Part shown: positions 5,217-53,482 of the stretch, in pieces
Position numbering within the stretch: the first letter of the stretch is position 1
How the letters are laid out: every line of letters starts with the position of its first letter
Sequence record: PQ100635.1
Origin: Escherichia phage PNJ-9
Length of the DNA stretch: 64,000 nt
Reading direction: 5' to 3' (one strand)
Made by a program: the position numbers and the translations under genes
The notes under the pieces: model-generated
The model's input: only the letters and a program-made list of their open reading frames with translations
Database searches by the model: none
What the model was told of the DNA's origin: nothing

Positions 5217-5418
5217 TTCTAAAGCAGATTATTTTAATTCTGTTAATGATAAGAATAAAGCGTTAATTCGCCACTTTATTACTGAGATGGGGTATACCGA
5301 CTCTAAAGATTTGAAAGAGCACATTATCGAATGTTCTGTGGCTAAAAAGTTTTCTTTCACTAGTAAATGTTTAAACGAGGTTATAAAGCATTATGAACAA
5401 TCTTGTAGCAAAACATGA
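5203..5418 (+). CDS. hypothetical protein (71 aa)
   Basis: ORF overlapping previous gene end; no motif recognised. Confidence 0.4.
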   Translation: MRIIDSKADYFNSVNDKNKALIRHFITEMGYTDSKDLKEHIIECSVAKKFSFTSKCLNEVIKHYEQSCSKT

Positions 5419-5501
5419 TTTCAATAAGGCTTCTGTTCATAAGGACAAGAAGAAATCAGAACTTCAATCTAAACGTAAACAAAAACATAAGGGTAAAGAC
5501 T

Positions 5502-7492: not shown

Positions 7493-7525
7493 ATTATAAA
7501 AAGGGACAGAAGTCCCTTCTCCTTA
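7490..7525 (-). promoter_or_regulatory. hairpin-split ribosome binding site of gene 38
   Basis: On - strand: gene 37 stop, GGAGA, hairpin AGGGAC-UUCU-GUCCCU, UUUUUAUAAU, then ATG; hairpin would bring the distant SD close to the start codon. Confidence 0.5.
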
Positions 7526-10500: not shown

Positions 10501-10759
10501 ATTTTCCTGCATAAACAAACTGATTTCCATTAAGATTATATGTGCCGTTTTGTAAATAATCACCATTTTGGGTTACATTACCGTTAATATCCCCACCCTT
10601 AGCAAAGCCTAGGCTAATAATATTACCGAGGTCATCTTTAGTAAAAAGAGTTCGATCTTTTAAGTTTATCGCTAATTCGCCTTCGGCTAATTGTGCTGCA
10701 GTAGGATTAACTCCTGCCACTTTGCTTCTTTTAAATTGTATCTGTTTTAATGTAGCCAT
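7523..10759 (-). CDS. 37: long tail fibre distal subunit gp37 (receptor-binding tip with HxH repeats)
   Basis: 1078 aa; N-terminus [13 protein letters not shown] and C-terminal His-rich tip ([30 protein letters not shown]) match T4 gp37. Confidence 0.9.
7617..7697. repeat. 3 x 27-bp tandem coding repeat in gp37 tip (HxH units)
   Basis: Units 7617-7643, 7644-7670, 7671-7697 share ccaata...cagtatg...gtg.gc.; encode repeated VGIGAHSHT-type motifs. Confidence 0.7.
7908..7997. repeat. 3 x 30-bp tandem coding repeat in gp37 tip
   Basis: Units 7908-7937, 7938-7967, 7968-7997 each start gtcttagtacc; encode [10 protein letters not shown] repeated. Confidence 0.7.
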
Positions 10760-10767
10760 AAGTCCTC

Positions 10768-11430
10768 TTAATAATAGCCGAAATCTTGAACAGAATCTTT
10801 AATTACAATCTGGTCGAAACGAGGAACATGATTAGCCTCGGATGCCGGATTCTGTGAGAAAAAGTTTGGTGCTGTTAAAGTACCGGTCATGGTATCGCCA
10901 GAACGCAATACACGGGAATTTGCGTTATCCGTAACAATATTTATTCGTCCATCAACATAATCTTTTCTTGTGAGATCATTTGCTGCAACTGGAGCAACTG
11001 CATTAGTTCTTATTTGACCTACTGCTGTCACAACGCCTTTTGTACTAATATCACCATTACGTGCATTAATTACAACAGTTCGGTCGGCTGAACCTTGTGA
11101 TGACTTAAAACCAATACCATTCCACGAAACGATGTCAATATTTGCCATAGCAAAAGTAGCTGCATCACCGTTACCTGGATAAACACCACACTGTTGACTA
11201 CTACCTATAGTAGGAACATGTACGCCTCCGTTAAATCGAACAGTTGCGGCGTAAGTACCACCATTAGCTTTAGAAACGAAATCGTTATCAGCAGCTTGTG
11301 GTTTATTATATTCTGAATAGAGTTTAAACGTTTTATACAGGACGTCATCACCTGCTGGCATTAAAGGGAAATTACCTTGATGCCATATAACGGCACCACC
11401 AGTTGTACTACCAGCTTTTAAATCGGCCAT
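10768..11430 (-). CDS. 36: long tail fibre hinge protein gp36
   Basis: 220 aa; [21 protein letters not shown] and C-terminal [18 protein letters not shown] match T4 gp36. Confidence 0.85.
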
Positions 11431-11454
11431 AGTTGTCTCCTTATATGTATACCA

Positions 11455-11462
11455 TATTTATA
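11455..11462 (-). promoter_or_regulatory. late promoter TATAAATA for gene 36
   Basis: Exact TATAAATA on - strand ~25 bp upstream of gene 36 start. Confidence 0.6.
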
Positions 11463-11487
11463 CAAAAATGGGAGCCTTCGGGCTCCC
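11463..11487 (-). terminator. terminator-like hairpin after gene 35
   Basis: GGGAGCC-UUCG/CGAA-GGCUCCC hairpin followed by U-run on - strand. Confidence 0.55.
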
Positions 11488-11492
11488 TAAAT

Positions 11493-12620
11493 TTATTCTG
11501 ACGCTTCTTTAAATTCTTGTCCAAATACCTTACCAGTATCAGTTGAAGATTGAGTAGGTAATGTCATTATGTCTGGGGCACTTAAAGATTCTGAAACATA
11601 ATTTACACGAATACCGTTTATACCAAACTCGGCAGGTTTTGAAACGCTTCCATTACATGATACTTCAGTGAATATAACGTTTCTTAATCCACCTTGCCCG
11701 ACTGGAGCTGTACGATAACAATAAATCGTGAACCCGTCAGCACCAGCAGGAATTTCTACGTAGTCTTCATATATCTTCCATTCACCTGCGGCCCCATCAA
11801 AGTTTGTATCCTTAAATGAAATAGGTGAAGTAGAAGGAGATTTAAAGAAACGAATAGAAAGTCGTGTCGTCCCTTGTGCTAACAAATCAGCATCGGCCAT
11901 TAGTTGGAATTTCATATAAAGGAAATCTCCAGGCTTCAATTTATACCCAGCGAGAGGTGTAATAAGGGACGTTGTAGGCATCCTTTTAATTTCATTATTA
12001 GTACCTCCAACAGCGGATAAAAATGTGTCTGACGATTCGTACGTACGACTAGGGAAGCCGGTAGCACCAATATCATTAATCGTGTCGTACACAACATCAA
12101 GTGGTGTACTATAGTCGGTTGAAGTTTTCTTATTACTATACTTAATATGTTCTAGTGCTATAGCATTCTTACCAGAAATATAAAATGCCGAATAAGAAAT
12201 GTCCACTATATTTAAAACTTGTTGAGCTAATGGAATAACAGAACTTCCAGCTTTAGTAAACCATGCGAGAACTTCAGGAGGAAAGTTTGTTTTAGCGTTA
12301 GTAACAAGAGCAAATATAAAATTAGAAGCGTATGTGTCCATGTAAGTAACGAATGCGCTTGACGTGGCGTCGTTTTCAGTAGAGAAATTATATGACTTAG
12401 ATTCAACTACTGCACCTGTTGTAGGATTTATTACACGAACGTTTAATCCAACGGAAAAAACCTGGGACCCAAGTGGATTATCTTGGAACTTAATATAAGC
12501 AGGAGATGTTGATAGCGGGCAAGAGCCCGCTATGCTTAATTTAAATCGTACTGAATTGCTTTCCGATAAAAATGGCGTTTGGACGTATCCTTGTCCAAAC
12601 TTAGCCATAAATTTTTCCAT
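11493..12620 (-). CDS. 35: long tail fibre proximal connector gp35
   Basis: 375 aa; position and length as T4 gp35 between 34 and 36. Confidence 0.85.
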   Translation of the reverse strand: MEKFMAKFGQGYVQTPFLSESNSVRFKLSIAGSCPLSTSPAYIKFQDNPLGSQVFSVGLNVRVINPTTGAVVESKSYNFSTENDATSSAFVTYMDTYASNFIFALVTNAKTNFPPEVLAWFTKAGSSVIPLAQQVLNIVDISYSAFYISGKNAIALEHIKYSNKKTSTDYSTPLDVVYDTINDIGATGFPSRTYESSDTFLSAVGGTNNEIKRMPTTSLITPLAGYKLKPGDFLYMKFQLMADADLLAQGTTRLSIRFFKSPSTSPISFKDTNFDGAAGEWKIYEDYVEIPAGADGFTIYCYRTAPVGQGGLRNVIFTEVSCNGSVSKPAEFGINGIRVNYVSESLSAPDIMTLPTQSSTDTGKVFGQEFKEASE

Positions 12621-17802: not shown

Positions 17803-18118
17803 TATTAAACCGGTTGATGAGGCCGGTTTATCTGAACAAGAATTAGCAGTAAAACACGATAAAGATGATATCGCTAAATTGCTTGACCGACAAGAAAACG
17901 GATTCATTATCGAATCCATGGTTGAACAATTTGGTATGTCTTATTTAGAAGCAACAACTGCTTTCTTGGAAGAAAATTCTATTCCAGAAACACAATTTGC
18001 TAAATTTATTCCTACAGGAATTGTTGAAAAAATTACAAGCGAAGCAATTGACGAAAACATGCTTCGCCCATCAGTTGCTCGTGGCGAAAAAACTAATACG
18101 TTAGATTTCTTATTATGA
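17780..18118 (+). CDS. 33: late transcription co-activator gp33
   Basis: 112 aa; MTQFSL.DI.PVDE.GLSE and C-terminal EKTNTLDFLL match T4 gp33. Confidence 0.85.
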   Translation: MTQFSLSDIKPVDEAGLSEQELAVKHDKDDIAKLLDRQENGFIIESMVEQFGMSYLEATTAFLEENSIPETQFAKFIPTGIVEKITSEAIDENMLRPSVARGEKTNTLDFLL

Positions 18119-18768
18119 TTAAAATACGCATGCCTCCTGATGGAGAACGTTATATTAATGGAAAATCGGTATATAAACTATACTTGATGTGCAAAAACCA
18201 TTTTGGTGGTCGGTATGACGTAATCAAATATAACTGGTGCATGCGTGTTTCTGATAATGCGTATCAAAAACGCCGAGATAAATATTTCTTTGAAAAACTA
18301 TCAGAGAAATATAAATTGAAGGAACTCGCCTTGATATTCATAAGCAACTTAGTTGCTAACCAAGACGCATGGATTGGTGAGATATCAGACGCTGATGCAT
18401 TAGTTTTCTATAGGGAATATATTGGACGTCTCAAACAAGCTAAAGAGACGTTTGCTGAAGATGTACGTAACATCTACTATTTCGGTAAGAAAGTTGAAGT
18501 TAGCGCGCTTCAAGAGATATTTGATTATAATAATAAAGTTCAGTCGAGCTACATATTTAAATTGCTACAAAGCAATATAATTTCATTTGAAACCTTCTTG
18601 TTGTTAGATTCATTTTTGAATATTATAGATAAGCACGACGAACTCACCGATAACTTAGTCTGGCAAAATTATTCTACCAAATTAAAGGCATATCGAAAAA
18701 TACTTCAAATCGATGGAAATGCTGCTAAGAAATTGTTCATAGAAACAATCAAATCATGTAAGTATTAA
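18115..18768 (+). CDS. 59: helicase loader gp59
   Basis: 217 aa; MIK.RMP..GERYI.GKSVYKLYLM...YNWCMRVSD.AYQKRRDKYFF matches T4 gp59. Confidence 0.9.
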   Translation: MIKIRMPPDGERYINGKSVYKLYLMCKNHFGGRYDVIKYNWCMRVSDNAYQKRRDKYFFEKLSEKYKLKELALIFISNLVANQDAWIGEISDADALVFYREYIGRLKQAKETFAEDVRNIYYFGKKVEVSALQEIFDYNNKVQSSYIFKLLQSNIISFETFLLLDSFLNIIDKHDELTDNLVWQNYSTKLKAYRKILQIDGNAAKKLFIETIKSCKY

Positions 18769-18797
18769 GCTTTATTTCTTGTGTGTTAAAATTACTT

Positions 18798-18805
18798 TAT
18801 AAATA
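18798..18805 (+). promoter_or_regulatory. late promoter TATAAATA upstream of gene 32
   Basis: Exact TATAAATA ~85 bp upstream of gene 32 start. Confidence 0.5.
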
Positions 18806-18890
18806 AATCATACCAGCTACGAGGTATAAGTGTCGTAGCAACCAACTGTAAGTAAATAAATTAAATAATCTAAATAAAAGGTAATAATCC
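18806..18890 (+). promoter_or_regulatory. gene 32 5' leader / putative autoregulatory translational operator
   Basis: Dyad gctacga...tcgtagc followed by long A/U-rich unstructured tract before the RBS, resembling the T4 gene 32 operator organisation. Confidence 0.45.
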
Positions 18891-19793
18891 ATGTTTAAAC
18901 GTAAATCTACTGCTGACCTCGCTGCTCAAATGGCTAAACTGAATGGTAACAAAGGTTTCTCTTCAGAAGATAAAGGCGAATGGAAGCTGAAGCTAGATGC
19001 ATCCGGTAATGGTCAAGCGGTAATTCGTTTCTTGCCAGCAAAAACTGATGATGCACTACCATTTGCAATTCTTGTTAACCACGGTTTCAAGAAAAATGGT
19101 AAATGGTATATTGAAAATTGCTCTTCTACACATGGTGATTACGACTCTTGTCCTGTATGTCAGTACATTAGTAAAAATGACCTGTACAATACCAACAAAG
19201 CTGAATATTCTCAACTGAAACGTAAAACTTCTTATTGGGCTAATATTCTGGTTGTTAAAGACCCTCAAGCTCCAGATAACGAAGGTAAAGTATTTAAATA
19301 TCGTTTCGGTAAAAAGATTTGGGACAAAATCAATGCAATGATTGCAGTTGATACCGAAATGGGTGAAACTCCAGTTGATGTTACTTGTCCGTTTGAAGGT
19401 GCTAACTTCGTTCTGAAAGCTAAGCAGGTTTCTGGTTTTAGCAACTATGACGAATCTAAATTCTTGGGTCAATCTGAAATTCCTCGTATTAATGATGAAG
19501 CATTCCAGAAAGAACTATATGACCAGATGGTAGACCTTACCACTTTGACGGCTAAAGACCAGTTCAAATCCTTTGAAAAATTAAATGAATCTTTCGCTAA
19601 GGTTCTTGGTACTGCCGCTCTTGGTGGTGCAGCAGCCGCAGCAGCTTCTGTTGCAGATAAAGTTGCTTCTGACCTTGACGATTTTGATAAAGACATGGAA
19701 GCCTTTAGTTCTGCAAAAACTGAAGATGACTTCATGAGCTCTACCTCATCCTCTGATGATGGTGACCTCGATGACCTGTTAGCCGGTCTATAA
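18891..19793 (+). CDS. 32: single-stranded DNA-binding protein gp32
   Basis: 300 aa; [47 protein letters not shown] and acidic C-terminus match T4 gp32. Confidence 0.92.
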
Positions 19794-20627: not shown

Positions 20628-20876
20628 ATGAATGTTGTTGTTGAATACTCTCAAGGCGCTGATGTCGGATATGAAGTTTATACTTCAGTTAATTTAGACC
20701 ATCCGGATTTGGCCGAATTCATTGGCGACGCATTTGATTTGTCTGGGCGATACACAACAAAACCTCGCGTTTGTGTTATAACATTTGACCCGACCGACGG
20801 CTGTCAAATCCAGACTGATTTGGTTTCTTCTAAATCACAAATCCAAAAAGTTATTAAAGGACTTAAAAATGCTTAA
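20628..20876 (+). CDS. hypothetical protein (82 aa)
   Basis: ORF with AGGA RBS; overlaps frd start by 8 nt. Confidence 0.5.
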   Translation: MNVVVEYSQGADVGYEVYTSVNLDHPDLAEFIGDAFDLSGRYTTKPRVCVITFDPTDGCQIQTDLVSSKSQIQKVIKGLKNA

Positions 20877-21456
20877 ATTAGTATTCGCATGTGCTCCGAC
20901 TAAAACAGTTGATGATAAGCTGGAATATGCTTTTGGATTAGGTGATGGACTTCCATGGAAGCATATCAAACAAGATATGAGTAACTTTGTTGCTCGCACT
21001 AAAAACACTGTAATGGTTATGGGTGCTAAGACTTTTGCATCATTACCTCGTCTACTCCAAGACCGTACTCATGTGGTTGTCACTGATATGGCCAGAAAAC
21101 TGCCTAGGACTAAAACTGATGAACTTGCACGGTTCTATATCACCCAATCTGAATTTATTACCTTGGTAACAGGTGGTGAAATTAACCTGTTTAGCCCTGC
21201 AACTGATGTACCGTTTAAACTTTCTACTGAACATGTTGATGTATCTGTTATTGGCGGTCCTGCATTATTAAAACAAGCACTGCCTTATGCCGATGAAATC
21301 GTGATGACTAAAATCATTAAGAAATGTCGTGTTAATTCCGATGTTCAACTTGATAAAGATTTCGTCCAAGATATTATGCTTCAACGTTCTATGGTAGAAT
21401 CTCATTACTACAGAATCGATGAACTCACCGAAATTACTGAGAGCGTTTATAAATGA
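20869..21456 (+). CDS. frd: dihydrofolate reductase
   Basis: 195 aa from ATG 20869 (track ORF 20785 is an upstream extension); M.KLVF...PTKTVD...AFGLGDGLPW, MGAKTF.SLP, VIGGPALL match T4 Frd. Confidence 0.85.
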   Translation: MLKLVFACAPTKTVDDKLEYAFGLGDGLPWKHIKQDMSNFVARTKNTVMVMGAKTFASLPRLLQDRTHVVVTDMARKLPRTKTDELARFYITQSEFITLVTGGEINLFSPATDVPFKLSTEHVDVSVIGGPALLKQALPYADEIVMTKIIKKCRVNSDVQLDKDFVQDIMLQRSMVESHYYRIDELTEITESVYK

Positions 21457-22313
21457 AACAATACCAATACCTGATTAAAGATATCTTAGAAAATGGCTAC
21501 GAAACAGACGACCGTACAGGTACCGGCACTATTGCCCTGTTCGGAACTAAATTGCGATGGGACCTTACTAAAGGATTTCCTGCAGTAACAACCAAGAAGC
21601 TTGCATGGAAAGCTTGTATTGCCGAGCTATTATGGTTCATGTCTGGTTCTACCAATGTTAATGATTTGCGTATTCGTACTCATGGTAGTCTTATTCAAGG
21701 TAAAACTATTTGGGACGACAACTATGAAAATCAGGCAAAAGACCTTGGGTATCATAGCGGCGAACTTGGTCCTATTTATGGTAAGCAATGGCGTGATTTT
21801 GGTGGTGTAGACCAATTAGTTGAAACAATCGACCGTATTAAAAAATTACCAACTGATCGTCGTCAAATTGTTTCTGCCTGGAATCCAGCTGAAATAAATC
21901 AAATGGCTCTTCCTCCTTGCCATATGTTCTATCAGTTCAATGTGCGTAATGGACATCTTGATTTACAATGGTATCAACGCAGTGTAGATGTTTTCTTAGG
22001 CCTGCCATTCAACATTGCCTCGTACGCTGCCTTGACACATATTGTAGCGAAGATGTGTAACCTTATCCCAGGTGATTTAGTGTTCTCAGGCGGCAACACG
22101 CATATCTACAGCAATCATGTAGAACAATGCAAAGAAGTTCTTCGTCGTGAACCTAAAGAGTTGTGTTCTCTTGAAATTAATTGGCCTAGTAATTTTGAGA
22201 ATTGGCCTACAAAAATCCAAATGGACTGGGTTACTGGAACGATGACACATTCTGATTTCGTTCTTAAAAATTACGAATCACATCCAGCTATCAAAGCTAA
22301 AATGGCGGTATAA
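21453..22313 (+). CDS. td: thymidylate synthase (uninterrupted, no intron)
   Basis: 286 aa contiguous ORF; matches T4 Td (MKQYQ.LIKDI.ENGYETDDRTGTGT, PPCHMFYQF, C-terminal KMAV). Confidence 0.92.
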   Translation: MKQYQYLIKDILENGYETDDRTGTGTIALFGTKLRWDLTKGFPAVTTKKLAWKACIAELLWFMSGSTNVNDLRIRTHGSLIQGKTIWDDNYENQAKDLGYHSGELGPIYGKQWRDFGGVDQLVETIDRIKKLPTDRRQIVSAWNPAEINQMALPPCHMFYQFNVRNGHLDLQWYQRSVDVFLGLPFNIASYAALTHIVAKMCNLIPGDLVFSGGNTHIYSNHVEQCKEVLRREPKELCSLEINWPSNFENWPTKIQMDWVTGTMTHSDFVLKNYESHPAIKAKMAV

Positions 22314-24912: not shown

Positions 24913-24964
24913 GACTTTTGATTATAATTTACTCATGGATGAGTTAAACTAAGTGAGAAATATA

Positions 24965-26140
24965 ATGAGTACAGTTTTTAACACACAACAAGTCGATGTT
25001 TTGAATGAACCGATGTTCTTTGGTTCTGGTCTTGGTATTGCGCGTTATGATATTCAACGCCATAAAGTTTTTGAAGATTTGACAGAAAAGCAATTATCGT
25101 TTTTTTGGCGCCCAGAAGAGGTAAACTTGATGTTGGACTCTGCGCAGTTCAATAAGCTTCCTCAGTTCCAACAGGACATCTTTACAAACAATCTTAAGTA
25201 TCAATCATTATTAGATTCTATCCAAGGCAGGGCCCCATCTGCGGTACTTATGGCACTGATTTCCGACCCTTCACTAGATACGTGGGTTGCAACATGGACA
25301 TTCAGTGAAACTATTCACTCTCGTTCGTATACTCATATTATGCGAAATCTTTATACGGATCCATCTAAGGTATTTGATGAAATTGTATTAGACGAAGCAA
25401 TCATGAAACGAGCTGAATCAATAGGTAAATATTACGATGATGTTCTGGTTAAAACTCGTTATTGGGAAAATGCTAAGGAAGATTATGAGCGTTCAATAGG
25501 CTCATGCCAGCAGAATGATATTGAGATGTATGAAGAAATAATGTTTAACGCTAAGCGTGAGCTAATGAAATCTCTTTATCTTTGCCTTCATGTAATTAAC
25601 GCCTTGGAAGCTATTCGTTTTTACGTATCATTTGCATGTACTTTCAACTTCCATAAAAATATGGAAATCATGGAAGGTAATGCAAAGATTATGAAGTTCA
25701 TTGCTCGTGACGAACAACTCCACCTCAAGGGTACTCAGTACATTATCCGTCAACTTCAATCTGGTACTGATGGTGATGAGTGGGTTCAAATTGCTAAAGA
25801 ATGTGAACAAGAAGCAGTTGACATTTTTATGGAAGTAAATAGACAAGAGAAGGAATGGGCTGCACACCTCTTTAAAGATGGTACATGTCCAGGTATCAAT
25901 ACGCAGAGTATGTGTGCTTTTGTTGATTACTTGACTGTGTCTCGTATGAAACAGTGCGGTTTGCCATGCCCAATCACTGATGCTCCGACCAAGCATCCGT
26001 ATCCTTGGATTCGTGAATATCTGAACTCTGATTTAGTTCAAGCAGCTCCTCAAGAAGTTGAAATCAGTTCTTATCTTGTCGCACAAATTGATAATGATGT
26101 AGACCAAAATGTAATCAATTCATACAAAAAATATTTCTAA
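24965..26140 (+). CDS. nrdB: aerobic ribonucleotide reductase small subunit (uninterrupted, no intron)
   Basis: 391 aa from ATG 24965 (track start 24953 is GTG); MSTVFNT..VDVLNEPMFFGSGLG.ARYDIQRH matches T4 NrdB; contiguous ORF. Confidence 0.9.
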   Translation: MSTVFNTQQVDVLNEPMFFGSGLGIARYDIQRHKVFEDLTEKQLSFFWRPEEVNLMLDSAQFNKLPQFQQDIFTNNLKYQSLLDSIQGRAPSAVLMALISDPSLDTWVATWTFSETIHSRSYTHIMRNLYTDPSKVFDEIVLDEAIMKRAESIGKYYDDVLVKTRYWENAKEDYERSIGSCQQNDIEMYEEIMFNAKRELMKSLYLCLHVINALEAIRFYVSFACTFNFHKNMEIMEGNAKIMKFIARDEQLHLKGTQYIIRQLQSGTDGDEWVQIAKECEQEAVDIFMEVNRQEKEWAAHLFKDGTCPGINTQSMCAFVDYLTVSRMKQCGLPCPITDAPTKHPYPWIREYLNSDLVQAAPQEVEISSYLVAQIDNDVDQNVINSYKKYF

Positions 26141-26144
26141 GGAC

Positions 26145-26166
26145 GGGACTTCGGTCCCACTTTATT
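26145..26166 (+). terminator. terminator-like hairpin after nrdB
   Basis: GGGAC-UUCG-GUCCC followed by weak U-rich tract. Confidence 0.4.
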
Positions 26167-26577
26167 ATGAAAGATATTGCCGCCGAATATTCCTTTATTA
26201 AATATACAGAATTGGAGCTATTAGAAGATGCAACAATTAAAACAGTTGATGTCCCTAATAAGAAAAATGTCATATACGCTATTGCTATAGATGACGAACT
26301 TGTGTATATTGGTAAAACCAAGAATTTAAAGAAACGCATTAACTATTATCGAACAGCCATAAATCGAAAAGACCAGACTTCAGATTCAAGAAAATCACTT
26401 ATGATTTTGGATGCCTTAATGCAAGGCAAAAAGGTTGAATTCTGGGCCCGCCAATGTTTTGACCTTTCAGTCACCAACGAACTTGGTTCAATGACCATCG
26501 CAACAATGGACCTTGAAGAACCGCTTTTTATCAAAAAGTTCAACCCGCCTTGGAATATCCAACATAAGAAAAAGTAG
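26167..26577 (+). CDS. denA: endonuclease II (GIY-YIG family)
   Basis: 136 aa; near-identical to T4 DenA as recalled (EYSFIKYTELEL, VIYAIAI.DELVYIGKTKNL.KRINYYRTAINRKD, FNPPWNIQHKKK). Confidence 0.9.
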   Translation: MKDIAAEYSFIKYTELELLEDATIKTVDVPNKKNVIYAIAIDDELVYIGKTKNLKKRINYYRTAINRKDQTSDSRKSLMILDALMQGKKVEFWARQCFDLSVTNELGSMTIATMDLEEPLFIKKFNPPWNIQHKKK

Positions 26578-26606
26578 TTTACATGCCACAAGGATTGTGG
26601 TACAAT
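26577..26606 (+). promoter_or_regulatory. sigma70-type early promoter upstream of rnlA
   Basis: GTTTACA 26577-26583, 17-bp spacer, TACAAT 26601-26606. Confidence 0.55.
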
Positions 26607-26623
26607 TTAAAAAAACTAACTGA

Positions 26624-27757
<1,134 letters not shown>

Positions 27758-27819
27758 TGGTTTACAAACACCAAGGAAGGTGTTACTATGGTTTTTATCA
27801 ACAACACGAGGAGAAAATT

Positions 27820-28320
27820 ATGAATATGCAATTGATTACTAACGATATGGTTGTGGCAGCATTTGGTGATTCTACAGATGGAATCCGAGTCTTTAAGAAA
27901 GGACGTCCAGTTGGTTATCTTACTGACCTACGTGTTACTCTAGCGAAAAATGCTAAAAAGAAGTTAAAGCAAAAGGAATATTCAACACGTTACACCGAAG
28001 AGAAACGTGAAGCGATGCCGGAAGCAGTTAATGCCATGGTAGAATTTCTTCAAAACAATTTGACTAAATATGACGCTAATGTGTTCATTAATATTAGTCA
28101 ACCAAACGTACATATCTCAGGTATAAAATTCTACATTATTTGCGACCCTCTTACCGACAAATTCAACCGTCTCGGAATCTCAAGTCCATATCATACAGCA
28201 GAAGAGTTGTGTGTATTGTTTGAATCGTACAAAATCCAGTGTGATGGTTTGAAAACCGTTCTTATTAATGGTTTATCCCGAGATGAAATCATTGAGATTA
28301 TTAAAACATGCTTAAAGTAA
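27820..28320 (+). CDS. alc: Alc (host transcription unfolding/termination on dC-DNA)
   Basis: 166 aa from ATG 27820 (AGGAG RBS 8 nt upstream); similarity to T4 Alc (GYLTD.R..LAKN, STRYT, GLS.DEIIEII); position after rnlA. Confidence 0.75.
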   Translation: MNMQLITNDMVVAAFGDSTDGIRVFKKGRPVGYLTDLRVTLAKNAKKKLKQKEYSTRYTEEKREAMPEAVNAMVEFLQNNLTKYDANVFINISQPNVHISGIKFYIICDPLTDKFNRLGISSPYHTAEELCVLFESYKIQCDGLKTVLINGLSRDEIIEIIKTCLK

Positions 28321-28664
28321 ATCCGATTTATGCTATAGTAGCAGCTTTTGCTCTAGTTTCTACGATAACAATAGTGGTCTTAAACAACAAAGTTGATTCG
28401 TTGAATACTGAATTAGCTTCTGTCAAAGAGACCGCTAAAAACAATGCTAAAGTATTAGACGACTTCAAGGTTCAATATCAGTCAATCGAAGAAATGACTT
28501 ATAAGAACCGTGTTTTAGTTGACCAACTTAAGGCCGAAAATGAAAAGCTCCGTAAGGATTCGAAGAAGAAGAACGTGGTGGCAAGTAAACCAGGATTGGT
28601 CGAAAAACAAATCAACAGGTCCTTCGATTCCTTTGCAGAAGACCTCAGGAAGCTCTCAGAATGA
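28308..28664 (+). CDS. i-spanin (inner membrane spanin subunit, PseT.3-like)
   Basis: 118 aa; N-terminal TM helix then coiled-coil-like charged region; directly precedes lipoprotein gene. Confidence 0.6.
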   Translation: MLKVNPIYAIVAAFALVSTITIVVLNNKVDSLNTELASVKETAKNNAKVLDDFKVQYQSIEEMTYKNRVLVDQLKAENEKLRKDSKKKNVVASKPGLVEKQINRSFDSFAEDLRKLSE

Positions 28665-28951
28665 TTAAATTAACCGCAGTTGTATTATCTATTGGCATTT
28701 TGGCCGGATGTGCCCAGGATGTGCCCTTAAGCCCTAAAGAAACTTTACATCCACCATGGCCTGAATCTATTGTTGAATATAACCAGAAATGGCAAGTAAA
28801 GGTTATTGATGGTAATCCGTGGGTTGGAATGCCATTTGAAGACTCTCAAGAATTTCGTATCTGGTTAAACGACGTAAAAAGATATGTACACGACCAGAAG
28901 ACTATGATATGTTATTATCGTAGTGGTTTAAAAGAGGAAAAATGCCAATGA
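28661..28951 (+). CDS. o-spanin (outer membrane lipoprotein, PseT.2-like)
   Basis: 96 aa; lipoprotein signal peptide with lipobox LAGC (Cys17); overlaps i-spanin stop. Confidence 0.65.
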   Translation: MIKLTAVVLSIGILAGCAQDVPLSPKETLHPPWPESIVEYNQKWQVKVIDGNPWVGMPFEDSQEFRIWLNDVKRYVHDQKTMICYYRSGLKEEKCQ

Positions 28952-29166
28952 CTAAAGAACAACATGAATACATTAAAGGGCTTATCTATGAATCTGAAAT
29001 GGCGGCTATGATTTATGGGCGCCAGATTCAACGATTAGAATCTTTGCCTCCGACTAATGACCGCTTGTTAGTTCAGTCTCGTGCTAATCTGAAAAACGAA
29101 TATCAGAATAAGTGGGCAGTAGCGACTAAAGCTCTTCATGAGTATATTGAATCTTTAGTAAAATAG
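28942..29166 (+). CDS. hypothetical protein (74 aa)
   Basis: ORF overlapping o-spanin end; no motif recognised. Confidence 0.45.
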   Translation: MPMTKEQHEYIKGLIYESEMAAMIYGRQIQRLESLPPTNDRLLVQSRANLKNEYQNKWAVATKALHEYIESLVK

Positions 29167-29200
29167 TTTACAAACTCTCGGGAGCAGAGTATAATGCTCC
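29166..29200 (+). promoter_or_regulatory. sigma70-type early promoter with flanking dyad
   Basis: GTTTACA 29166-29172, TATAAT 29190-29195; dyad ggagca/tgctcc; near-identical to promoter at 1114-1149. Confidence 0.6.
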
Positions 29201-29223
29201 TATGGATAATTGAGGAAATCTAA

Positions 29224-29522
29224 ATGAAAACATTACTAGAGAATTACATCAAACGGTCTGATGAGTATATTGATATCTGTCGTGGAATGTCACTCGGCAA
29301 TTATGACAAAGATGCAGCAAAGGCACTAGATGAAGCAGGTAAAGCTCTTCGTAAAGCTGCTAAAGAAAAAGGGTTGGATTTGCAACAACTCAAAAGTCAT
29401 ATGATTAAATTTATTTCTTCAAACGTTAGAAGTACGTCAATTAATAAAAACGTTGCTGAAATTAATAAAGACCGGCGCGAGCATAACATTCGTATTCTTG
29501 AAATTTTCTTAGGAATAAAATA

Positions 29523-29523
<1 letters not shown>
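29224..29523 (+). CDS. hypothetical protein (99 aa)
   Basis: ORF with GAGGA RBS after promoter; no motif recognised. Confidence 0.45.
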
Positions 29524-30610
<1,087 letters not shown>

Positions 30611-30631
30611 TTAGAAATCTCCATAGTTAAG

Positions 30632-30639
30632 TATAAATA
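30632..30639 (+). promoter_or_regulatory. late promoter TATAAATA upstream of homing endonuclease gene
   Basis: Exact TATAAATA 19 bp upstream of ATG 30658. Confidence 0.5.
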
Positions 30640-30657
30640 TCTATAGAGGTGATTCTA

Positions 30658-31380
30658 ATGGAAAAATACACTGTGTATAAAACCACGTGTTTGGTTAACA
30701 ACAAAATTTATATAGGGGTTCATAAGACCTTAAAAGAAAATGATTCTTATTTAGGTTCCGGTACAGCTTTTAAAAATGCCGAATCAAAATATGGTAAAGA
30801 TTCTTTTAATAAAGAAATCATAAAAATATTTGAAACTAAACAAGAAGCATATGATTTAGAAGCTGAATTAGTAACTAAAGAATTTATAAAATTGGATACT
30901 AATTATAATTTGAAACCCGGCGGAGAAGGAGGCTGGGATTATATCAATGAAAACCGTATTAATGTTAATTCCAGTCCTGAAACTTCATTAAAAATTTCAG
31001 AAACACAAAAACAGAGATATAAAAACGGTGCCGTGCCATGGATTAAAGGCAAGAAATTACCAGGGCATGGGATTAAATCTAAAGAAAGTCGTCTTAAAAA
31101 TGGTAATTCATTTGAAGGCGAAAATAATCCTATGTACGGTAAAAATGTAAAAGATTTTATGAGCGAAGAAGCTATTATAGAATGGGGTAATAAAATATCC
31201 AAAGCGAATAAAGGTAAGATTCGTTCAGATGAGGCAAAAGAAAACTATTCTAAAGCAGCTAAATCCAGAAAATGGCTTATCCATATTTCAGGTAAGAAAT
31301 CTTCTACAACAGATGAAAACGACCCTAGATTGAGCCATCCTGATTGGCAATTAGGCCGCAAATGGAAAACTAATGAATAA
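30658..31380 (+). CDS. GIY-YIG homing endonuclease (Seg-like, freestanding)
   Basis: 240 aa from ATG 30658 (GGTGA RBS); N-terminal GIY-YIG module (YTVYKTT..NNKIYIGVHKT....DSYLGSG) and basic C-terminal DNA-binding region. Confidence 0.75.
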   Translation: MEKYTVYKTTCLVNNKIYIGVHKTLKENDSYLGSGTAFKNAESKYGKDSFNKEIIKIFETKQEAYDLEAELVTKEFIKLDTNYNLKPGGEGGWDYINENRINVNSSPETSLKISETQKQRYKNGAVPWIKGKKLPGHGIKSKESRLKNGNSFEGENNPMYGKNVKDFMSEEAIIEWGNKISKANKGKIRSDEAKENYSKAAKSRKWLIHISGKKSSTTDENDPRLSHPDWQLGRKWKTNE

Positions 31381-31573
31381 TATCGAAAAGATTTTTCGTA
31401 CAATCGAAGAAATTGAAAAACGTAAATGCTTTTTCTTCGGCGTATGGCCTTTAGTAAATGGACGGTTCGATATTGATGTGCTGGACTATGAACATGAAGA
31501 ATGGTTGGACGGCGGTATATTTGATAACGTCGACCAGGCAATTGAATGGTTAAATGAAAACTATGTACGATAA
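31373..31573 (+). CDS. hypothetical protein (66 aa)
   Basis: ORF overlapping HEG stop; no motif recognised. Confidence 0.4.
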   Translation: MNNIEKIFRTIEEIEKRKCFFFGVWPLVNGRFDIDVLDYEHEEWLDGGIFDNVDQAIEWLNENYVR

Positions 31574-31778
31574 ACATCATGAAATCGAAGATGAAGCATA
31601 CAAAATGCTTCGTAAACTAGTGGGACTTAATATGAGTCCTACATTAATCAACAAACTCGCAGGAATTCGTAATGATCTGAATACTCGTTACAAAGGTGAA
31701 TATCATGTAGAGTTTGTTCCTGTAGGTGAACCGACCGAGCGATTTGTTGTTCGAGTTAAAGTAAATACTGTACACTGA
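31554..31778 (+). CDS. hypothetical protein (74 aa)
   Basis: ORF; no motif recognised. Confidence 0.4.
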   Translation: MKTMYDKHHEIEDEAYKMLRKLVGLNMSPTLINKLAGIRNDLNTRYKGEYHVEFVPVGEPTERFVVRVKVNTVH

Positions 31779-31785
31779 GGTAATT

Positions 31786-32061
31786 ATGTTCCCAACTTAT
31801 TCTGAAATTGTAAAGGTAGTCTTCAGTCAGATTATTGCTAATAATATGTTTGAAGTGCTTGATAATGCAGCCGAACTCAGAGTTCATGCTCAACTAACTC
31901 ATGTACTCAATGCTTTGCTCCCAGACCAAGTAGATTCTATTGTTATTACTCTTCTCCCTGGGTCTGCACACGTCATAGTGGTATTTGATCTTGACGGCGA
32001 TTTAGTTATCCAATGTGATATCAATTTCGGTACACAAAAAATTGAATGCAAAGCAATTTAA
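31786..32061 (+). CDS. hypothetical protein (91 aa)
   Basis: ORF with GAGG RBS; no motif recognised. Confidence 0.4.
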   Translation: MFPTYSEIVKVVFSQIIANNMFEVLDNAAELRVHAQLTHVLNALLPDQVDSIVITLLPGSAHVIVVFDLDGDLVIQCDINFGTQKIECKAI

Positions 32062-32063
32062 TG

Positions 32064-32102
32064 GTTTACAACATGGTGGAGTTGTGATACTATAACTCTA
32101 CC
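32064..32102 (+). promoter_or_regulatory. sigma70-type early promoter with flanking dyad (PeSL-like)
   Basis: GTTTACA 32064-32070, TACTAT -10; dyad ggtggagtt/aactctacc (8 of 9 complementary). Confidence 0.55.
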
Positions 32103-32121
32103 AACAAATGAGGAAATAGAA

Positions 32122-32358
32122 ATGCTAAGTGAAAACCCAATTACAGTACACGAATTTCAGATTAAAGTAAAAGAATTTGCTCAAGCACTCATCAATAAAG
32201 TGTCTGAACGTTTCAAAGATGCAACATTACGAGTTATTCAAGAATCTCCACGTTCTTTTCTCATAATCGTTAATCCTAAAGATGGTGACCAAATTACTAA
32301 TCTTAAATTAGGCAGTGATGGTCTTGTTGAAGCAACTCGAGTATATGGAACACTATAA
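32122..32358 (+). CDS. hypothetical protein (78 aa)
   Basis: ORF with GAGGA RBS after promoter. Confidence 0.45.
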   Translation: MLSENPITVHEFQIKVKEFAQALINKVSERFKDATLRVIQESPRSFLIIVNPKDGDQITNLKLGSDGLVEATRVYGTL

Positions 32359-32478
32359 TGAGAGCTATCTCATTACTATCGTGAATGGTCATAAATCTGA
32401 GCACTACCAACTTAGCCTGTCTAATCCGGTTAAAGGTATTGTTGAATCAGAATCTGTTTATATCTCCTAAGGATTGTT

Positions 32479-33471
32479 ATGTTACCTGTCGTCAGAAAAC
32501 TTATTTCTCCAAAAGAACTGGCTGAGATTATTCCTTTGTCGGAAGCTTACGCATCACAAGTGGCTTCTCATCGCGAACAAGTTAATTCGATTATGAACGG
32601 TGAAGACCCACGCAAACTTATTGTTGTAGGTCCTTGTTCAATTCATGACCCTATTGCTGCTGTTGAATACGGCAAACGTCTGGCTGAACTTCAAACTCGT
32701 CTTCCTAATGTTCTGTTAGTGATGCGCGTTTATTTTGAAAAGCCTCGAACTACCGTAGGTTGGAAAGGTCTTGTAAATGATCCATATCTTGACGGAAGTT
32801 TTGATATGAACCACGGTCTTATAGTTGCACGAACATTGTGTCGTAAACTTCTACGTATGGGACTTCCATTAGCAACTGAAGTATTAGACCCATTCACGAT
32901 TAAGTATCTTTCTGGTATTTTCTCATGGGTTGCTATTGGCGCCCGTACGACTGAAAGTCAGACACATCGTGAAATTGCTTCAGGTCTACCGATGTGCGTA
33001 GGCTTCAAGAACGCAACCAATGGTTCTATTAAAGTAGCTACAGACGCGATGTATAGTGCCGCCTGGCCTCATCGGTATATGGGTATGGACGTCGATGGTA
33101 CTGTAGGCATTGTTGAAGCTGAAGGTAATCAGAATACGCATATCGTATTGCGTGGCGGGACTAACGGCCCGAACTATCATTCTTCTGATATTCAAGAAGC
33201 TTCTAACAAAGCAAGTGCATTAGGTCTGAATCATTATGTAATGGTTGACTGTAGCCATGCAAACGCTGATGGGTATTATAGCAATCAAATTGGTATTGGT
33301 AAAAATTTAGCAGCTAATGATTTGGTCAAAGGAATTATGATAGAATCATTCCTACATGAAGGAAATCAAAAAATTTCTGATAATATGTCCTATGGCGTTT
33401 CCGTTACCGATGCGTGCATCGGTTGGGAACAAACTAAAGAGCTGTTAACTTATATTAATAAGGTTCAATAA
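32479..33471 (+). CDS. 3-deoxy-D-arabino-heptulosonate 7-phosphate (DAHP) synthase, AroG/F/H class I-alpha type
   Basis: 330 aa; motifs recalled from E. coli AroG: GPCSIHD, RVYFEKPRTTVGWKGL.NDP, WVAIGARTTESQ.HRE.ASGL, RGG..PNY, D.SHAN, ESFLHEGNQ, TDACIGW. Confidence 0.85.
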   Translation: MLPVVRKLISPKELAEIIPLSEAYASQVASHREQVNSIMNGEDPRKLIVVGPCSIHDPIAAVEYGKRLAELQTRLPNVLLVMRVYFEKPRTTVGWKGLVNDPYLDGSFDMNHGLIVARTLCRKLLRMGLPLATEVLDPFTIKYLSGIFSWVAIGARTTESQTHREIASGLPMCVGFKNATNGSIKVATDAMYSAAWPHRYMGMDVDGTVGIVEAEGNQNTHIVLRGGTNGPNYHSSDIQEASNKASALGLNHYVMVDCSHANADGYYSNQIGIGKNLAANDLVKGIMIESFLHEGNQKISDNMSYGVSVTDACIGWEQTKELLTYINKVQ

Positions 33472-34052
33472 TGAAAGCTAGCACATACCTTCAGATTGCA
33501 TATCTGATTTCTCAAGAATCAAAATGTTGTTCATGGAAAGTTGGCGCAGTCATTGAAAAAGATGGACGCATTATCTCTACTGGATATAATGGCTCACCAG
33601 CAGGTGGCGTTAACTGTTGTGAACATGCATCCGAAAACGGTTGGTTGAAGAATAAACCAAGCCCGGTCATCGTTGCTGGACATAAAGAAGGCACTACAGC
33701 ATTTGGACGGGTGGATAATTTTGTTTTGGCTAAAGAACATCGGGCCGCTCATAGTGCATGGTCTGCTAATAACGAAATCCATGCTGAATTGAATGCCATT
33801 TTGTTTGCAGCTCGTAAAGGTAATTCTATTGAAGGTGCTACGTTGTATACGACACTTTCTCCATGTCCTGATTGCACTAAAGCTATTACGCAGTCAGGTA
33901 TTAAAAAGGTTGTATACGCAGAATTATATGACAGATCTCCTGAAAATTGGGCAGACATTCTAAAACAAGCCGGTATTGAAGTAATTCAGTACTCTCGTAA
34001 TAATCTTCGTTCTCTGAATTGGGAACAAATCCGAAACTTTTGTGGTGAATAA
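33471..34052 (+). CDS. cd: dCMP deaminase
   Basis: 193 aa; zinc-binding HAE...PCPDC cytidine/dCMP deaminase motifs; length equals T4 Cd. Confidence 0.9.
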   Translation: MKASTYLQIAYLISQESKCCSWKVGAVIEKDGRIISTGYNGSPAGGVNCCEHASENGWLKNKPSPVIVAGHKEGTTAFGRVDNFVLAKEHRAAHSAWSANNEIHAELNAILFAARKGNSIEGATLYTTLSPCPDCTKAITQSGIKKVVYAELYDRSPENWADILKQAGIEVIQYSRNNLRSLNWEQIRNFCGE

Positions 34053-51658: not shown

Positions 51659-51892
51659 TTAGAAGTCTTCTTCCTCATCCTCATCATCGTCGCCTTCAAG
51701 TTCGGCACGCTTACCTGCTAAGGCATCCCTGACAGAAATATCATCTGTATCTTTTAATTCCGTTTCTTTTATACGTTTCTTATAATAAGCTTCCAATTCT
51801 TCAAGCCCTTCTAAGGTATGACAACTAGCAATTTTACCCATGAATTCGTCAATAGATGCTTCGTATAAAAATTGTTTAAATTCAAGTACCAT
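51659..51892 (-). CDS. uvsW.1: UvsW.1 (small acidic protein downstream of uvsW)
   Basis: 77 aa; MVLEFKQFLYEASIDEFMGKIASC.TLEGLEELEAYYKKR.KETELKDTDDISVRDALAGKRAELE and acidic tail match T4 UvsW.1. Confidence 0.75.
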   Translation of the reverse strand: MVLEFKQFLYEASIDEFMGKIASCHTLEGLEELEAYYKKRIKETELKDTDDISVRDALAGKRAELEGDDDEDEEEDF

Positions 51893-53432: not shown

Positions 53433-53461
53433 GTCAAATTACCATGTAATAAATATAGTTA

Positions 53462-53469
53462 TATTTATA
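53462..53469 (-). promoter_or_regulatory. late promoter TATAAATA for uvsW
   Basis: Exact TATAAATA on - strand 30 bp upstream of uvsW start. Confidence 0.55.
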
Positions 53470-53482
53470 ATGAGGAAATACC

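Follow-up and report, generated by a model that had tools for sequence, protein, structure and literature searches.

An intact GIY-YIG gene directly after the polynucleotide kinase gene of an RB69-like T4-type phage

The DNA analyzed here (hereafter the window) is a stretch of 64,000 nucleotides from Escherichia phage PNJ-9, an RB69-like (Mosigvirus) phage of the T4 type. It carries an intact GIY-YIG gene directly after the polynucleotide kinase gene and a second GIY-YIG gene between the late genes 24 and 23. Both are free-standing Seg-type genes, as the original prediction had proposed. The first is flanked by pseT and a homologue of cd.4, and cd itself is found at 33471-34052. The locus comprises the following features.

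29711-30610, + strand: pseT (polynucleotide kinase/3'-phosphatase), 74% amino acid identity to T4 PseT; putative target gene
30610-30659, + strand: leader of the endonuclease cassette, with a TTAGAAATCTCC element just after the pseT stop, a promoter motif, a Shine-Dalgarno (SD) sequence and the ATG at 30658
30658-31380, + strand: gene for a free-standing Seg-type GIY-YIG homing endonuclease of 240 amino acids, assigned from Pfam, PHROG and a structural model
31373-31573, + strand: cd.4 homologue, 56% amino acid identity to T4 Cd.4, whose start ATG overlaps the endonuclease stop (ATGAATAA)

The second gene lies between gene 24 (56716-57999, − strand) and gene 23 (59090-60658, − strand), in the following surroundings.

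58045-58073, + strand: promoter-like site of the sigma-70 type (TTTACA-17-TACTAT, TG present), ahead of both ORF88 and the segD orthologue
58103-58369, + strand: ORF88 (PHROG 6003), directly ahead of the segD orthologue and in the same orientation
58373-59032, + strand: segD orthologue, 219 amino acids, antisense between late genes 24 and 23
59041-59062, no strand assigned: GC-rich terminator-like hairpin in the gap between gene 23 and the segD orthologue, which converge

Its product is 100% identical to the annotated SegD of phage F2 and is homologous to T4 SegD from end to end (58.8% identity in 221 columns, E=2.8e-87). T4 segD occupies 106561-107232 (− strand) of NC_000866, between 23 (+) and 24 (+) (see also Table 1 of Edgell et al. 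2010, PMC2988022). By homology, position and antisense orientation, all of which match, 58373-59032 is the T4 segD orthologue. The window differs from T4 in having the 88-amino-acid ORF and the sigma-70-like site upstream; for T4 segD, no promoter was identifiable (Edgell 2010, PMC2988022). A search for an ORF88 counterpart in T4 gave no match; some relatives have ORF88 without segD (MX01 and JS98), and TH58 has neither gene. The promoter-like site is the sole one in 57900-59200 versus 4.3 expected, and so counts as a consensus match, not as evidence of function. The complement of endonucleases had been predicted to differ from that of T4 at both loci. This holds for the pseT-cd.4 gene, since T4 has cd.5 and not a seg gene after pseT, but not for the 24/23 gene, where T4 carries a homologous, although not identical, gene at the same position.

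Other positions at which T4 carries mobile endonuclease genes are as follows in the window.

18769-18890, no strand assigned: segG position, the gap between gene 59 (18115-18768) and gene 32 (18891-19793); 122 bp, no ORF
21453-22313, + strand: td, one uninterrupted ORF of 286 amino acids; no group I intron, no I-TevI
24953-26140, + strand: nrdB, without interruption (its start is given as that of the mechanical ORF); no I-TevIII intron
53433-53482, no strand assigned: segE position, the gap between uvsW (51918-53432, − strand) and inh (53483-54151, + strand); 50 bp, empty

The window td aligns to T4 in two blocks (145112-144564 and 143546-143238), as does nrdB (139719-139057 and 138455-137958). 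Rfam searches of the window at gathering thresholds returned no family and hence no group I intron, and the predicted lack of introns in td and nrdB was thus borne out. mobE is absent between nrdA (which ends at 24912) and nrdB. The segG and segE genes are missing as had been claimed, but of the "unrelated small ORFs or nothing" expected in their place only the latter was found; the gene 59/gene 32 gap does contain a copy of TATAAATA at 18798-18805. A tblastn search of the window with all nine T4 GIY-YIG proteins found only the first gene and the segD orthologue, and a scan of ten more ORFs to which no T4 name could readily be given revealed no hidden endonuclease genes. Nor did Nolan et al. 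(2006, PMC1524935) find group I introns in RB69 or in four further genomes of T4-like phages. Intron-free td and nrdB are therefore the norm outside T4 and no sign of recent change; the lack of segE and segG is also usual there. The two GIY-YIG loci each show presence/absence polymorphism among close relatives, which is the signature of gain or loss and supports the original prediction on this point.

The ORF of the first gene runs from 30649 or 30658 to 31380; the likely start is the ATG at 30658, with GAGG ahead of it at 30646-30649. The 240-amino-acid protein matches the GIY-YIG family PF01541 (E=6.4e-7, 30 bits versus a cutoff of 22.6), PF19835 (SegE_GIY-YIG, 26.8 bits versus a cutoff of 25) and, at residues 141-162, the NUMOD3 family PF07460 (22.6 bits versus a cutoff of 20.4). 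It also matches PHROG 314, "homing endonuclease" (3e-44). After the catalytic domain (approximately residues 1-95) come NUMOD3-type helices and, at the C terminus, a small beta module; residues 107-232, conserved and helical then beta, constitute a separate C-terminal DNA-binding module. An AlphaFold2 model has a mean pLDDT of 84, with values of 88-96 for residues 1-90, which are predicted to fold in the order beta-beta-alpha-beta-alpha. The top three PDB matches of this model found by Foldseek are all to the I-TevI catalytic domain (1mk0/1ln0; probability 0.97-1.00, TM-target 0.62, 91-92 columns), with E-values (0.03-0.17) that are weak because the query was full length. The family profile gave E=0.016 against the same structures.

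Catalytic residues were compared using the Tyr of GIY, the Tyr of YIG, Arg (R27 of I-TevI), Glu (E75) and Asn (N90). Y7, Y18, G20, H22, E68 and N84 are invariant among 38 homologues, and the protein retains all 28 invariant columns of the family. Y7, Y18/G20, E68 and Y83-N84 align to I-TevI, with E68, part of an E-x-E, offset by one residue from E75. The GIY Tyr, the YIG Tyr-Gly, Glu68 and Asn84 are also common to T4 SegA-E. In the alignment, R27 of I-TevI falls in a six-residue segment that is missing from the first-gene family and likewise from T4 SegA-E; the invariant H22 or K16 may be a candidate substitute. Values of dN/dS for the gene range from 0.06 to 0.27 (0.085-0.097 versus the closest alleles). 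At dN/dS ∼0.1, the gene is judged to be under purifying selection, which spans the whole protein, including the DNA-binding half.

The Arg that cannot be aligned, together with a clearly decayed copy split into fragments at the same locus of Klebsiella phage EI, would suit a decaying or inactive relic in the late stage of a homing cycle. We consider this very unlikely for the window gene, whose ORF is full length with every invariant column kept and a dN/dS of ∼0.09, whose model is confident, and whose promoter motif, SD and hairpin are intact. The missing Arg is, moreover, a trait of the family that is shared with T4 Seg proteins reported active (SegA-E are listed as active enzymes in Table 1 of Edgell 2010, PMC2988022). 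The favored reading is that the gene encodes an intact, probably active Seg-type homing endonuclease, of a lineage that is probably specialized on the 3' end of pseT/pnkp and would spread by homing with a leader for late-only expression.

The TTAGAAATCTCC element, which is conserved, directly follows the pseT stop, and its anti-Shine-Dalgarno arm is at 30615-30626. The late-promoter motif TATAAATA that had been predicted for this gene is present at 30632-30639 (+ strand), ahead of the GAGG. Sixteen copies of TATAAATA occur in the window versus 7.0 +/- 2.5 expected, a number reached by 0 of 100 shuffles. In the predicted hairpin, 30610-30629 is paired with 30638-30659, which places a AAATCTCC element opposite the ribosome-binding site and the late promoter in the loop. 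The leader RNA of the window folds at −11.8 kcal/mol and, with a C-A mismatch in the hairpin, only marginally beats shuffled sequences (z=−2.06; 12 of 200 fold as well); the corresponding z values are −3.3 in WFbE185 and −6.5 in P896. Of 13 loci, 12 keep the leader element, and compensatory changes are seen. The computed pairing probability of the SD is 0.99 in read-through RNA versus 0.47 in the predicted late RNA. By this analysis the leader would be of the I-TevI/segB style, in which translation is confined to the late transcript. Hairpin stems across the loci fall in three registers with variable loop lengths; hence individual compensatory changes and pairing probabilities are reported. 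The register differs at three loci, and a TATAAATA-like box is missing at two.

The leader was also searched for an I-TevI-like operator, which would repeat the sequence of the empty pseT/cd.4 junction. The top local alignment had a score of 10, and 791 of 2000 shuffles reached this. A likeness between leader and empty junction (GGTGATT..TAATG) is visual only and can be put down to chance or to two ordinary translation-initiation regions. Another reading is that the protein has been co-opted for a different role of benefit to the phage, such as cutting the pnkp region of competitors or binding its own leader to regulate the cd.x genes. Marker exclusion by Seg enzymes also harms competitors, and I-TevI doubles as an autorepressor (Edgell 2010, PMC2988022); the first gene, in addition, has several small cd.x ORFs downstream of it. 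The data offer nothing that would tell such a role from ordinary homing, however, and the rarity of the gene among relatives speaks against a strong benefit. With the leader lacking an operator-like copy of the empty site, we regard co-option as highly improbable.

The 4.4-kb region is at least 80% covered in 139 records of close relatives. The cassette is present in one of them, WFbE185; the remainder match in two pieces at 81% coverage. In endonuclease-free relatives the pseT stop is joined directly to the cd.4 start, with the overlap TAATG in SQ17 and JQD51; RB69 is likewise an endonuclease-free Mosigvirus. Across 26000-33000 the window is 99.6-100% identical to endonuclease-free JQD51, except for 30190-31460. 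The last ∼19 nt of pseT (30592-30610) are unlike endonuclease-free alleles, such that PseT ends in ..CWQVASGDF* in the window versus ..CWQVNHGDF* in SQ17 and JQD51. At the other end, the first ∼72 nt of cd.4 (31373-31444) are identical to those of Gaprivervirus P896 and unlike those of endonuclease-free Mosigvirus; from this pattern, they are taken to have come along with the cassette. Presence/absence polymorphism at a fixed site, with flanking co-conversion, is thus observed among close relatives. Part of the divergent sequence upstream (30190-30610, ∼420 bp, versus JQD51) was considered as a co-conversion tract and rejected. It cannot be attributed to homing because it matches the allele of endonuclease-free SQ17 (95-100% identical).

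Between genera, the cassette of P896 is 90% identical at the nucleotide level where the flanks are 55-70% identical. Conversely, in phages with nearly identical flanks, cassette alleles differ at dS 0.5. In Karamvirus the cassette stands exactly in place of a 192-bp cd.4 homologue, with flanks ∼100% identical to within ∼20 nt of the pseT stop. Relatives of the first gene at 39-92% identity occupy the post-pseT site in five T4-like genera (Mosigvirus, Gaprivervirus, Karamvirus, Marfavirus as a decayed copy, and Bragavirus), and the left junction of the cassette is conserved at single-nucleotide resolution. In all 7 metagenomic contigs examined a relative likewise sits at this site, and some of these contexts are not T4-like and have a stand-alone phosphatase gene. 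Every family member checked lies 33-56 nt past a gene with a C-terminal PNKP phosphatase domain (HAD_PNKP). Shigella phage SP18 also has an endonuclease at the pseT/cd.4 junction, which was rejected as a family member, being on the opposite strand with NUMOD3 only and no BLASTP match; by sequence, this case points to a hot spot and not a single family.

These data also bear on a passive-passenger reading, in which the ORF derives from an endonuclease but has stopped homing and travels only by general homologous recombination, its patchiness being produced by mosaicism and deletion. Compared with JQD51, the whole window is a mosaic in which many of the divergent patches have nothing to do with an endonuclease; the cassette occurs in only that one close relative; and the upstream divergent tract matches an endonuclease-free allele. 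T4 SegD is also said, in work by Sokolov et al. from 2018, to cut DNA yet drive no homing of its own gene. Strict fidelity to one locus in five genera and in unrelated phage backgrounds, the exact left junction, purifying selection over the entire protein and the sharing of the cassette between genera with far more diverged flanks are, however, hard to obtain without site-specific spread. A passenger is therefore disfavored, and we consider it unlikely. For a homing endonuclease specialized on the 3' end of pseT/pnkp, the scarcity of the cassette in sequenced Mosigvirus could mean that homing is inefficient.

Among known systems, SegB is the T4 protein closest to the first gene in the catalytic domain (43% identity over 131 amino acids, E=5e-31). 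It too is free-standing and co-oriented with its neighbors, and it mediates preferential inheritance of its region. SegB is reported to have a late promoter together with an RNA structure hiding the ribosome-binding site (Edgell 2010, PMC2988022; Brok-Volchanskaya 2008, PMC2330249). The C-terminal DNA-binding half is unrelated, however, with the alignment ending at about residue 134, and the locus and target of SegB are tRNA genes, whereas the first gene lies at the pseT 3' end, its presumed target. Assignment of the first gene to one of T4 SegA-SegG was rejected, since alignment is confined to the N-terminal 89-173 residues (38-47% identity), SegG gives no hit and the locus differs. With T4 SegD only the catalytic domain is in common (47% over 89 amino acids), and SegF matches over the N-terminal domain at E=1.5e-8. 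The mechanism proposed below is like that of T4 SegF and SegG, namely cleavage in a conserved neighbor (56 and 32, respectively) followed by co-conversion of flanks (Edgell 2010, PMC2988022), but those genes are promoter-less cassettes in T4 and the first gene has its own late-promoter motif. I-TevI shares the catalytic fold, the combination of an N-terminal nuclease with NUMOD3-type DNA-binding helices, and a late promoter with a predicted hairpin sequestering the ribosome-binding site. It differs in being intron-encoded (in T4 td), in having only ∼21% identity and in its R27 segment and operator, neither of which was detected in the first gene.

Orthologues after pseT occur in WFbE185, P896, KMB20, vB_Ent31, EnC07, PM2, MP1 and PSTRCR_121/127, at 62-92% amino acid identity and with the same junction and leader elements. 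Their GenBank labels are either generic ("homing endonuclease", "Seg-like") or wrong: "putative intron endonuclease" for WFbE185 and "SegD" for P896. An intron-encoded endonuclease was rejected, as no intron model in Rfam matched in the window and both flanking genes, pseT and cd.4, are complete and separately translated ORFs. Searches of the literature found no earlier description, experimental or comparative, of a pseT-associated Seg gene.

We infer the following course of events. In a mixed infection the enzyme would cut the allele that has no endonuclease, at a site within or adjoining the conserved final ∼20-100 bp of pseT. The break would be resected and then repaired from the endonuclease-carrying genome, copying in the 770-bp cassette (30611-31380) with its flanks, the last pseT codons and the first 72 nt of cd.4. 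The outcome would be intron-less homing with localized marker exclusion, as shown for T4 SegB, SegE, SegF and SegG. Read-through RNA from pseT would fold the hairpin, in which the conserved AAATCTCC masks the ribosome-binding site, and RNA started at the late promoter in the loop would not contain the 5' arm and would be translatable, so that the nuclease would be made only late. A precedent is the late-only expression of I-TevI and segB, which depends on the choice of promoter and on RNA structure (Edgell et al. 2010, PMC2988022).

The first gene is an additional member of a well-known endonuclease class and opens no new question. To the known Seg lineages it adds one whose traces are exceptionally clear. 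Across five genera the cassette enters at one point that does not shift by a nucleotide, and its gene neighbor is constant in every context examined. Three annotation labels are corrected, in that the post-pseT gene is neither intron-encoded nor SegD and the 24/23 gene is SegD. The leader apparently reuses the "translate only from late transcript" logic of I-TevI and segB. Empty and filled alleles in otherwise near-identical genomes are ready-made substrates for cleavage mapping and homing crosses.

More tentatively, and at somewhat less than even chances, this may be an old and widely traveled lineage bound to the 3' end of the coding sequence for the PNKP phosphatase domain, which passed from T4-like phages into unrelated phages with a stand-alone phosphatase, together with a portable leader (anti-SD AAATCTCC, late promoter and SD). 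If so, the enzyme would recognize the DNA for a conserved C-terminal PNKP motif (..DDR.QVV.MWR..G..C.QV..G.F*), and the family's enzymes, each with its own target, would form a natural series in which to follow how a GIY-YIG enzyme keeps up with a target that drifts. It would also drive the exchange of alleles of pnkp, a gene that counters host anticodon-nuclease defense, between distant phages.

Two Seg-like GIY-YIG genes in intergenic positions had been proposed for the window, and this observation was confirmed, with both genes verified as ORFs and by Pfam. The features concerned are:

30632-30639, + strand: late-promoter motif TATAAATA, ahead of the first gene
30658-31380, + strand: first endonuclease gene, 240 aa; its GIY-YIG domain and NUMOD3 motif each score over the Pfam cutoff
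58045-58073, + strand: sigma-70-like site, ahead of ORF88
58103-58369, + strand: ORF88, 88 aa, PHROG 6003, preceding the segD orthologue
58373-59032, antisense: second GIY-YIG gene, between genes 24 and 23

The first gene begins 47 nt after the stop of pseT (the phage polynucleotide kinase/3'-phosphatase gene, pnkp), and its stop codon and the start of the cd.4 homologue overlap. The mechanical ORF start is a GTG at 30649; the ATG at 30658 has GAGG 8 nt upstream. The late-promoter motif TATAAATA ahead of the gene agrees with the original observation. At 16 copies versus 7 expected, it is over-represented in the window, and the other copies lie mostly ahead of known late genes.

Alignments with T4 SegB (43% identity, 131 aa aligned), SegC (47%, 116 aa), SegD (47%, 89 aa), SegE (42%, 118 aa) and SegA (38%, 173 aa) were limited to the catalytic domain of the first-gene protein, and its C-terminal half had no match in the T4 GIY-YIG proteins compared. 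Because the catalytic domain alone aligns and the T4 position after pseT holds cd.5, the first gene is none of SegA-G; judged by sequence, it is a free-standing Seg-type GIY-YIG gene orthologous to no named T4 Seg. Full-length relatives were found in phages WFbE185 (Mosigvirus) and P896 (Gaprivervirus; both 92% aa identity), three Karamvirus phages (76%), and Proteus, Morganella and Providencia phages (Bragavirus, 62%), as well as in about 35 metagenomic clusters, down to 39% identity. Exact copies of the protein occur in two run-assembly contigs only. In Klebsiella phage EI (Marfavirus; L007), the pseT-associated Seg gene is split into at least two annotated fragments (2592-3186), with two more fragments, of a MobE-like endonuclease type, between cd and the DAHP synthase gene (5121-5659); these look like homing endonuclease decay.

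Across 38 homologues of the first gene, 28 columns are invariant, among them the GIY tyrosine Y7, Y18-I-G20, H22, the GSG motif, E68 and Y83-N84. The family profile matches the I-TevI catalytic domain in PDB (E=0.016), placing family residues on I-TevI Y6, Y17/G19, the E73-R-E75 triplet and Y89-N90. An AlphaFold2 model of the protein has a mean pLDDT of 84 (88-96 in the nuclease domain), and the three best fold matches in PDB are all I-TevI. Of the two catalytic residues named for checking, the Glu was present (E68, invariant in the 38 homologues) and the Arg had no counterpart in the alignment: R27 of I-TevI falls in a six-residue segment missing from the family. Since T4 SegA-E likewise lack this segment and are given as active enzymes (PMC2988022, Table 1), the missing Arg is uninformative on activity. 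Overall, dN/dS spanned 0.06-0.27; for comparisons with the two closest alleles it was 0.085-0.097. By conservation and modeling, the first gene probably encodes a working enzyme.

The leader and endonuclease gene together form a 770-bp cassette. A 4.4-kb query spanning the first gene and its flanks was covered to 80% or more by 139 records; of these, only WFbE185 carries the cassette, and the remaining records align in two pieces. At the empty junction in SQ17 and JQD51, both endonuclease-free Mosigvirus, the stop of pseT and the start of cd.4 overlap (..GGTGATTTTTAATGAAA..). From 26000 to 33000 the window and JQD51 are 99.6-100% identical, with the exception of 30190-31460. Here 30592-31444 of the window stands in place of about 83 bp of the empty allele, so that the exchanged tract runs from the last pseT codons through the cassette and 72 nt into cd.4. 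PseT ends in ..VASGDF in the window versus ..VNHGDF in the empty allele, and the cd.4 5' end reads MNNIEKIFRTIEEIEKRK.. versus MKRLYEVIEAIEQHKE... The window cd.4 5' end is nucleotide-identical to that of P896, a phage of another genus with only 55-70% identity in the surrounding DNA, and the shared tract is shorter in WFbE185; this looks like the pattern of flanking co-conversion.

Although the nearby host genomes of the window and WFbE185 are 97-100% identical, dS between their cassettes is 0.50, which implies separate arrival or recombination among cassettes. The nuclease half has a dS of 0.12 and the DNA-binding half 0.92, and this unevenness points to endonuclease alleles having recombined, or to shuffling of domains. 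For the window allele against comparison loci L001 and L013, dS was 0.12-0.31 in the nuclease half and 0.68-0.92 in the DNA-binding half. The Karamvirus phages KMB20 and KMB17 are about 100% identical until roughly 20 nt before the pseT stop, with identity resuming at the final 9 nt of the cassette, which in Karamvirus exactly substitutes for a 192-bp cd.4 homologue. In Gaprivervirus, the pseT/cd.4 junction is empty in some phages and holds an unrelated endonuclease gene, oriented opposite to the window gene, in SP18 and others, and it looks like a hot spot for at least two endonuclease families. The SP18 gene (Shigella phage, NC_014595, 915-1640, - strand; 241 aa, endonuclease-like) overlaps the pseT 3' end; it matched NUMOD3 only, with no GIY-YIG match and no BLASTP similarity to the window gene. 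Judged from these alignments, the first gene is mobile.

In five genera and in all seven metagenomic contigs looked up (39-71% identity), the start of the first-gene family member lies 33-56 nt beyond a gene for a protein with a C-terminal PNKP phosphatase (HAD_PNKP) domain. Three of the seven contigs have non-T4-like surroundings and encode just a 148-157-aa stand-alone phosphatase. The upstream proteins share the C-terminus ..(V/A)V.MWR..G..(C/V)(W/F)(Q/A)V..G(D/N/S)F*, and the downstream genes are not conserved. Because the upstream pnkp end is constant and the downstream side variable, we infer a recognition or cleavage site in the last tens of bp of pnkp, a placement that we consider somewhat favored. 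Where filled and empty alleles are otherwise identical (Mosigvirus, Karamvirus), they differ solely in a cluster of positions within the last ~20 nt of pseT, which would fit a cut near the insertion point, as with I-TevI. Note that in one metagenomic contig (L027, JGI 3300042927, 2016-3613) a PNKP phosphatase gene (148 aa), a Seg homologue and a 131-aa AAA_33 kinase-like gene follow one another; the halves of a PNKP-like enzyme are thus separate genes flanking the endonuclease, in the order opposite to T4 PseT.

In 12 of 13 leaders, (TTAG)AAATCTCC or something close to it follows the pnkp stop directly. In eight of the 13, ViennaRNA pairs the AAATCTCC element with the endonuclease-gene Shine-Dalgarno sequence (SD; GGAG/GAGG), leaving TATAAATA in the loop; Karamvirus, Marfavirus and Bragavirus leaders use another register, with the promoter motif as 5' arm, and the SD is sequestered there too. 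Compensatory pairs occur in the leaders of L024 (AAGTCTCC/GGAGACTT), L018 (CTCCACAG/CTGTGGAG) and L026 (CTCCTAAAGC/GCTTTAGGAG). The computed SD pairing probability is 0.71-1.00 in read-through RNA at 11 of 12 loci and drops to 0.11-0.47 in RNA begun 6 nt past the promoter box. The window stem is weak, with one C-A mismatch (-11.8 kcal/mol, z=-2.06). This is the arrangement described for I-TevI, I-TevII, I-TevIII, segB and Aeh1 mobE, whose early/middle read-through transcripts are silent and whose late-promoter transcripts are translated (PMC2988022). In read-through RNA from pseT the hairpin would hide the SD, leaving the endonuclease untranslated; RNA from the late promoter would free the SD and allow translation. 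We give this model of late-restricted translation moderate credence.

The second-gene protein is 58.8% identical to T4 SegD over its full length and identical to a protein annotated SegD in phage F2; T4 segD also lies antisense between 23 and 24 (Edgell et al. 2010, PMC2988022, Table 1). On this sequence evidence the second gene is segD. An endonuclease set unlike that of T4 thus holds for the pseT-cd.4 gene (cd.5 in T4) and fails for the 24-23 gene. The window locus differs from that of T4, where no segD promoter could be found (PMC2988022), in its extra ORF88 and sigma-70-like site. Among relatives the spacer contains ORF88 and segD (37 records), ORF88 alone (e.g. MX01, JS98) or neither (e.g. 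TH58); ORF88 may either belong to the mobile unit or have inserted separately.

As first observed, td and nrdB are uninterrupted: each is a single ORF aligned to T4 as two blocks either side of the T4 introns, and an Rfam search found no intron. Intron-free td and nrdB are normal among T4 relatives (PMC1524935). The positions of segG (59/32, 122 bp) and segE (uvsW/inh, 50 bp) are likewise empty gaps, and nrdA adjoins nrdB without mobE. Neither tblastn with nine T4 GIY-YIG proteins nor a domain scan of ten unnamed ORFs revealed further endonuclease loci.

The region around the first gene matched 711 phage records, the nearest being Mosigvirus coliphages (RB69-like, Tevenvirinae; 94-98% identity). 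Gene order is the reverse of T4: rnh, 59, 32, frd, td, nrdA, nrdB, denA, rnlA, alc and pseT, then cd, uvsY, uvsW, inh, hoc, rnlB and 24, ending at 23. The frd region (20646-21450) and part of hoc (54441-54716) do not align to JQD51, where td and frd are separated by an additional ORF; identity to JQD51 is also only 76-90% in the strongly divergent tail-fibre region (7500-11500). Hoc, at 283 aa, is shorter than T4 Hoc. Product names in the JQD51 record (PV204681.1) seem displaced by one gene relative to the CDS: for instance, the cd-sized ORF is called 'deoxyheptonate aldolase', a 192-bp ORF 'polynucleotide kinase', and the major capsid gene 'homing endonuclease'. Downstream of uvsW, uvsW.1 is its own 77-aa ORF (51659-51892, - strand), as reported in other T4 relatives (PMC1524935); uvsW is still one longer gene in the T4 reference annotation used. 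Directly upstream of cd, in the T4 cd.1 position, lies a gene for a class I DAHP synthase (aroF/G/H-like; PF00793, E=1.8e-74; 32479-33471, + strand). Mosigvirus relatives have this gene too, as do Klebsiella phage EI, Proteus phage PM2 and metagenomic contig L020; it seems to serve T4-like phages as an auxiliary metabolic gene for the shikimate pathway.

The earlier interpretation is partly supported. The best explanation, which we regard as likely, is that the first gene encodes an active Seg-type homing endonuclease whose target is pnkp and whose translation is restricted to late transcripts; it fits the intron-less homing and marker-exclusion pattern of SegB, SegE, SegF and SegG. Orthologues in GenBank are named generically or wrongly ('putative intron endonuclease', 'SegD'), and no description of a pnkp-associated Seg lineage was found in the literature searched. 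The only points that would be mildly new are the strict tie to the 3' end of pnkp and the portable leader.
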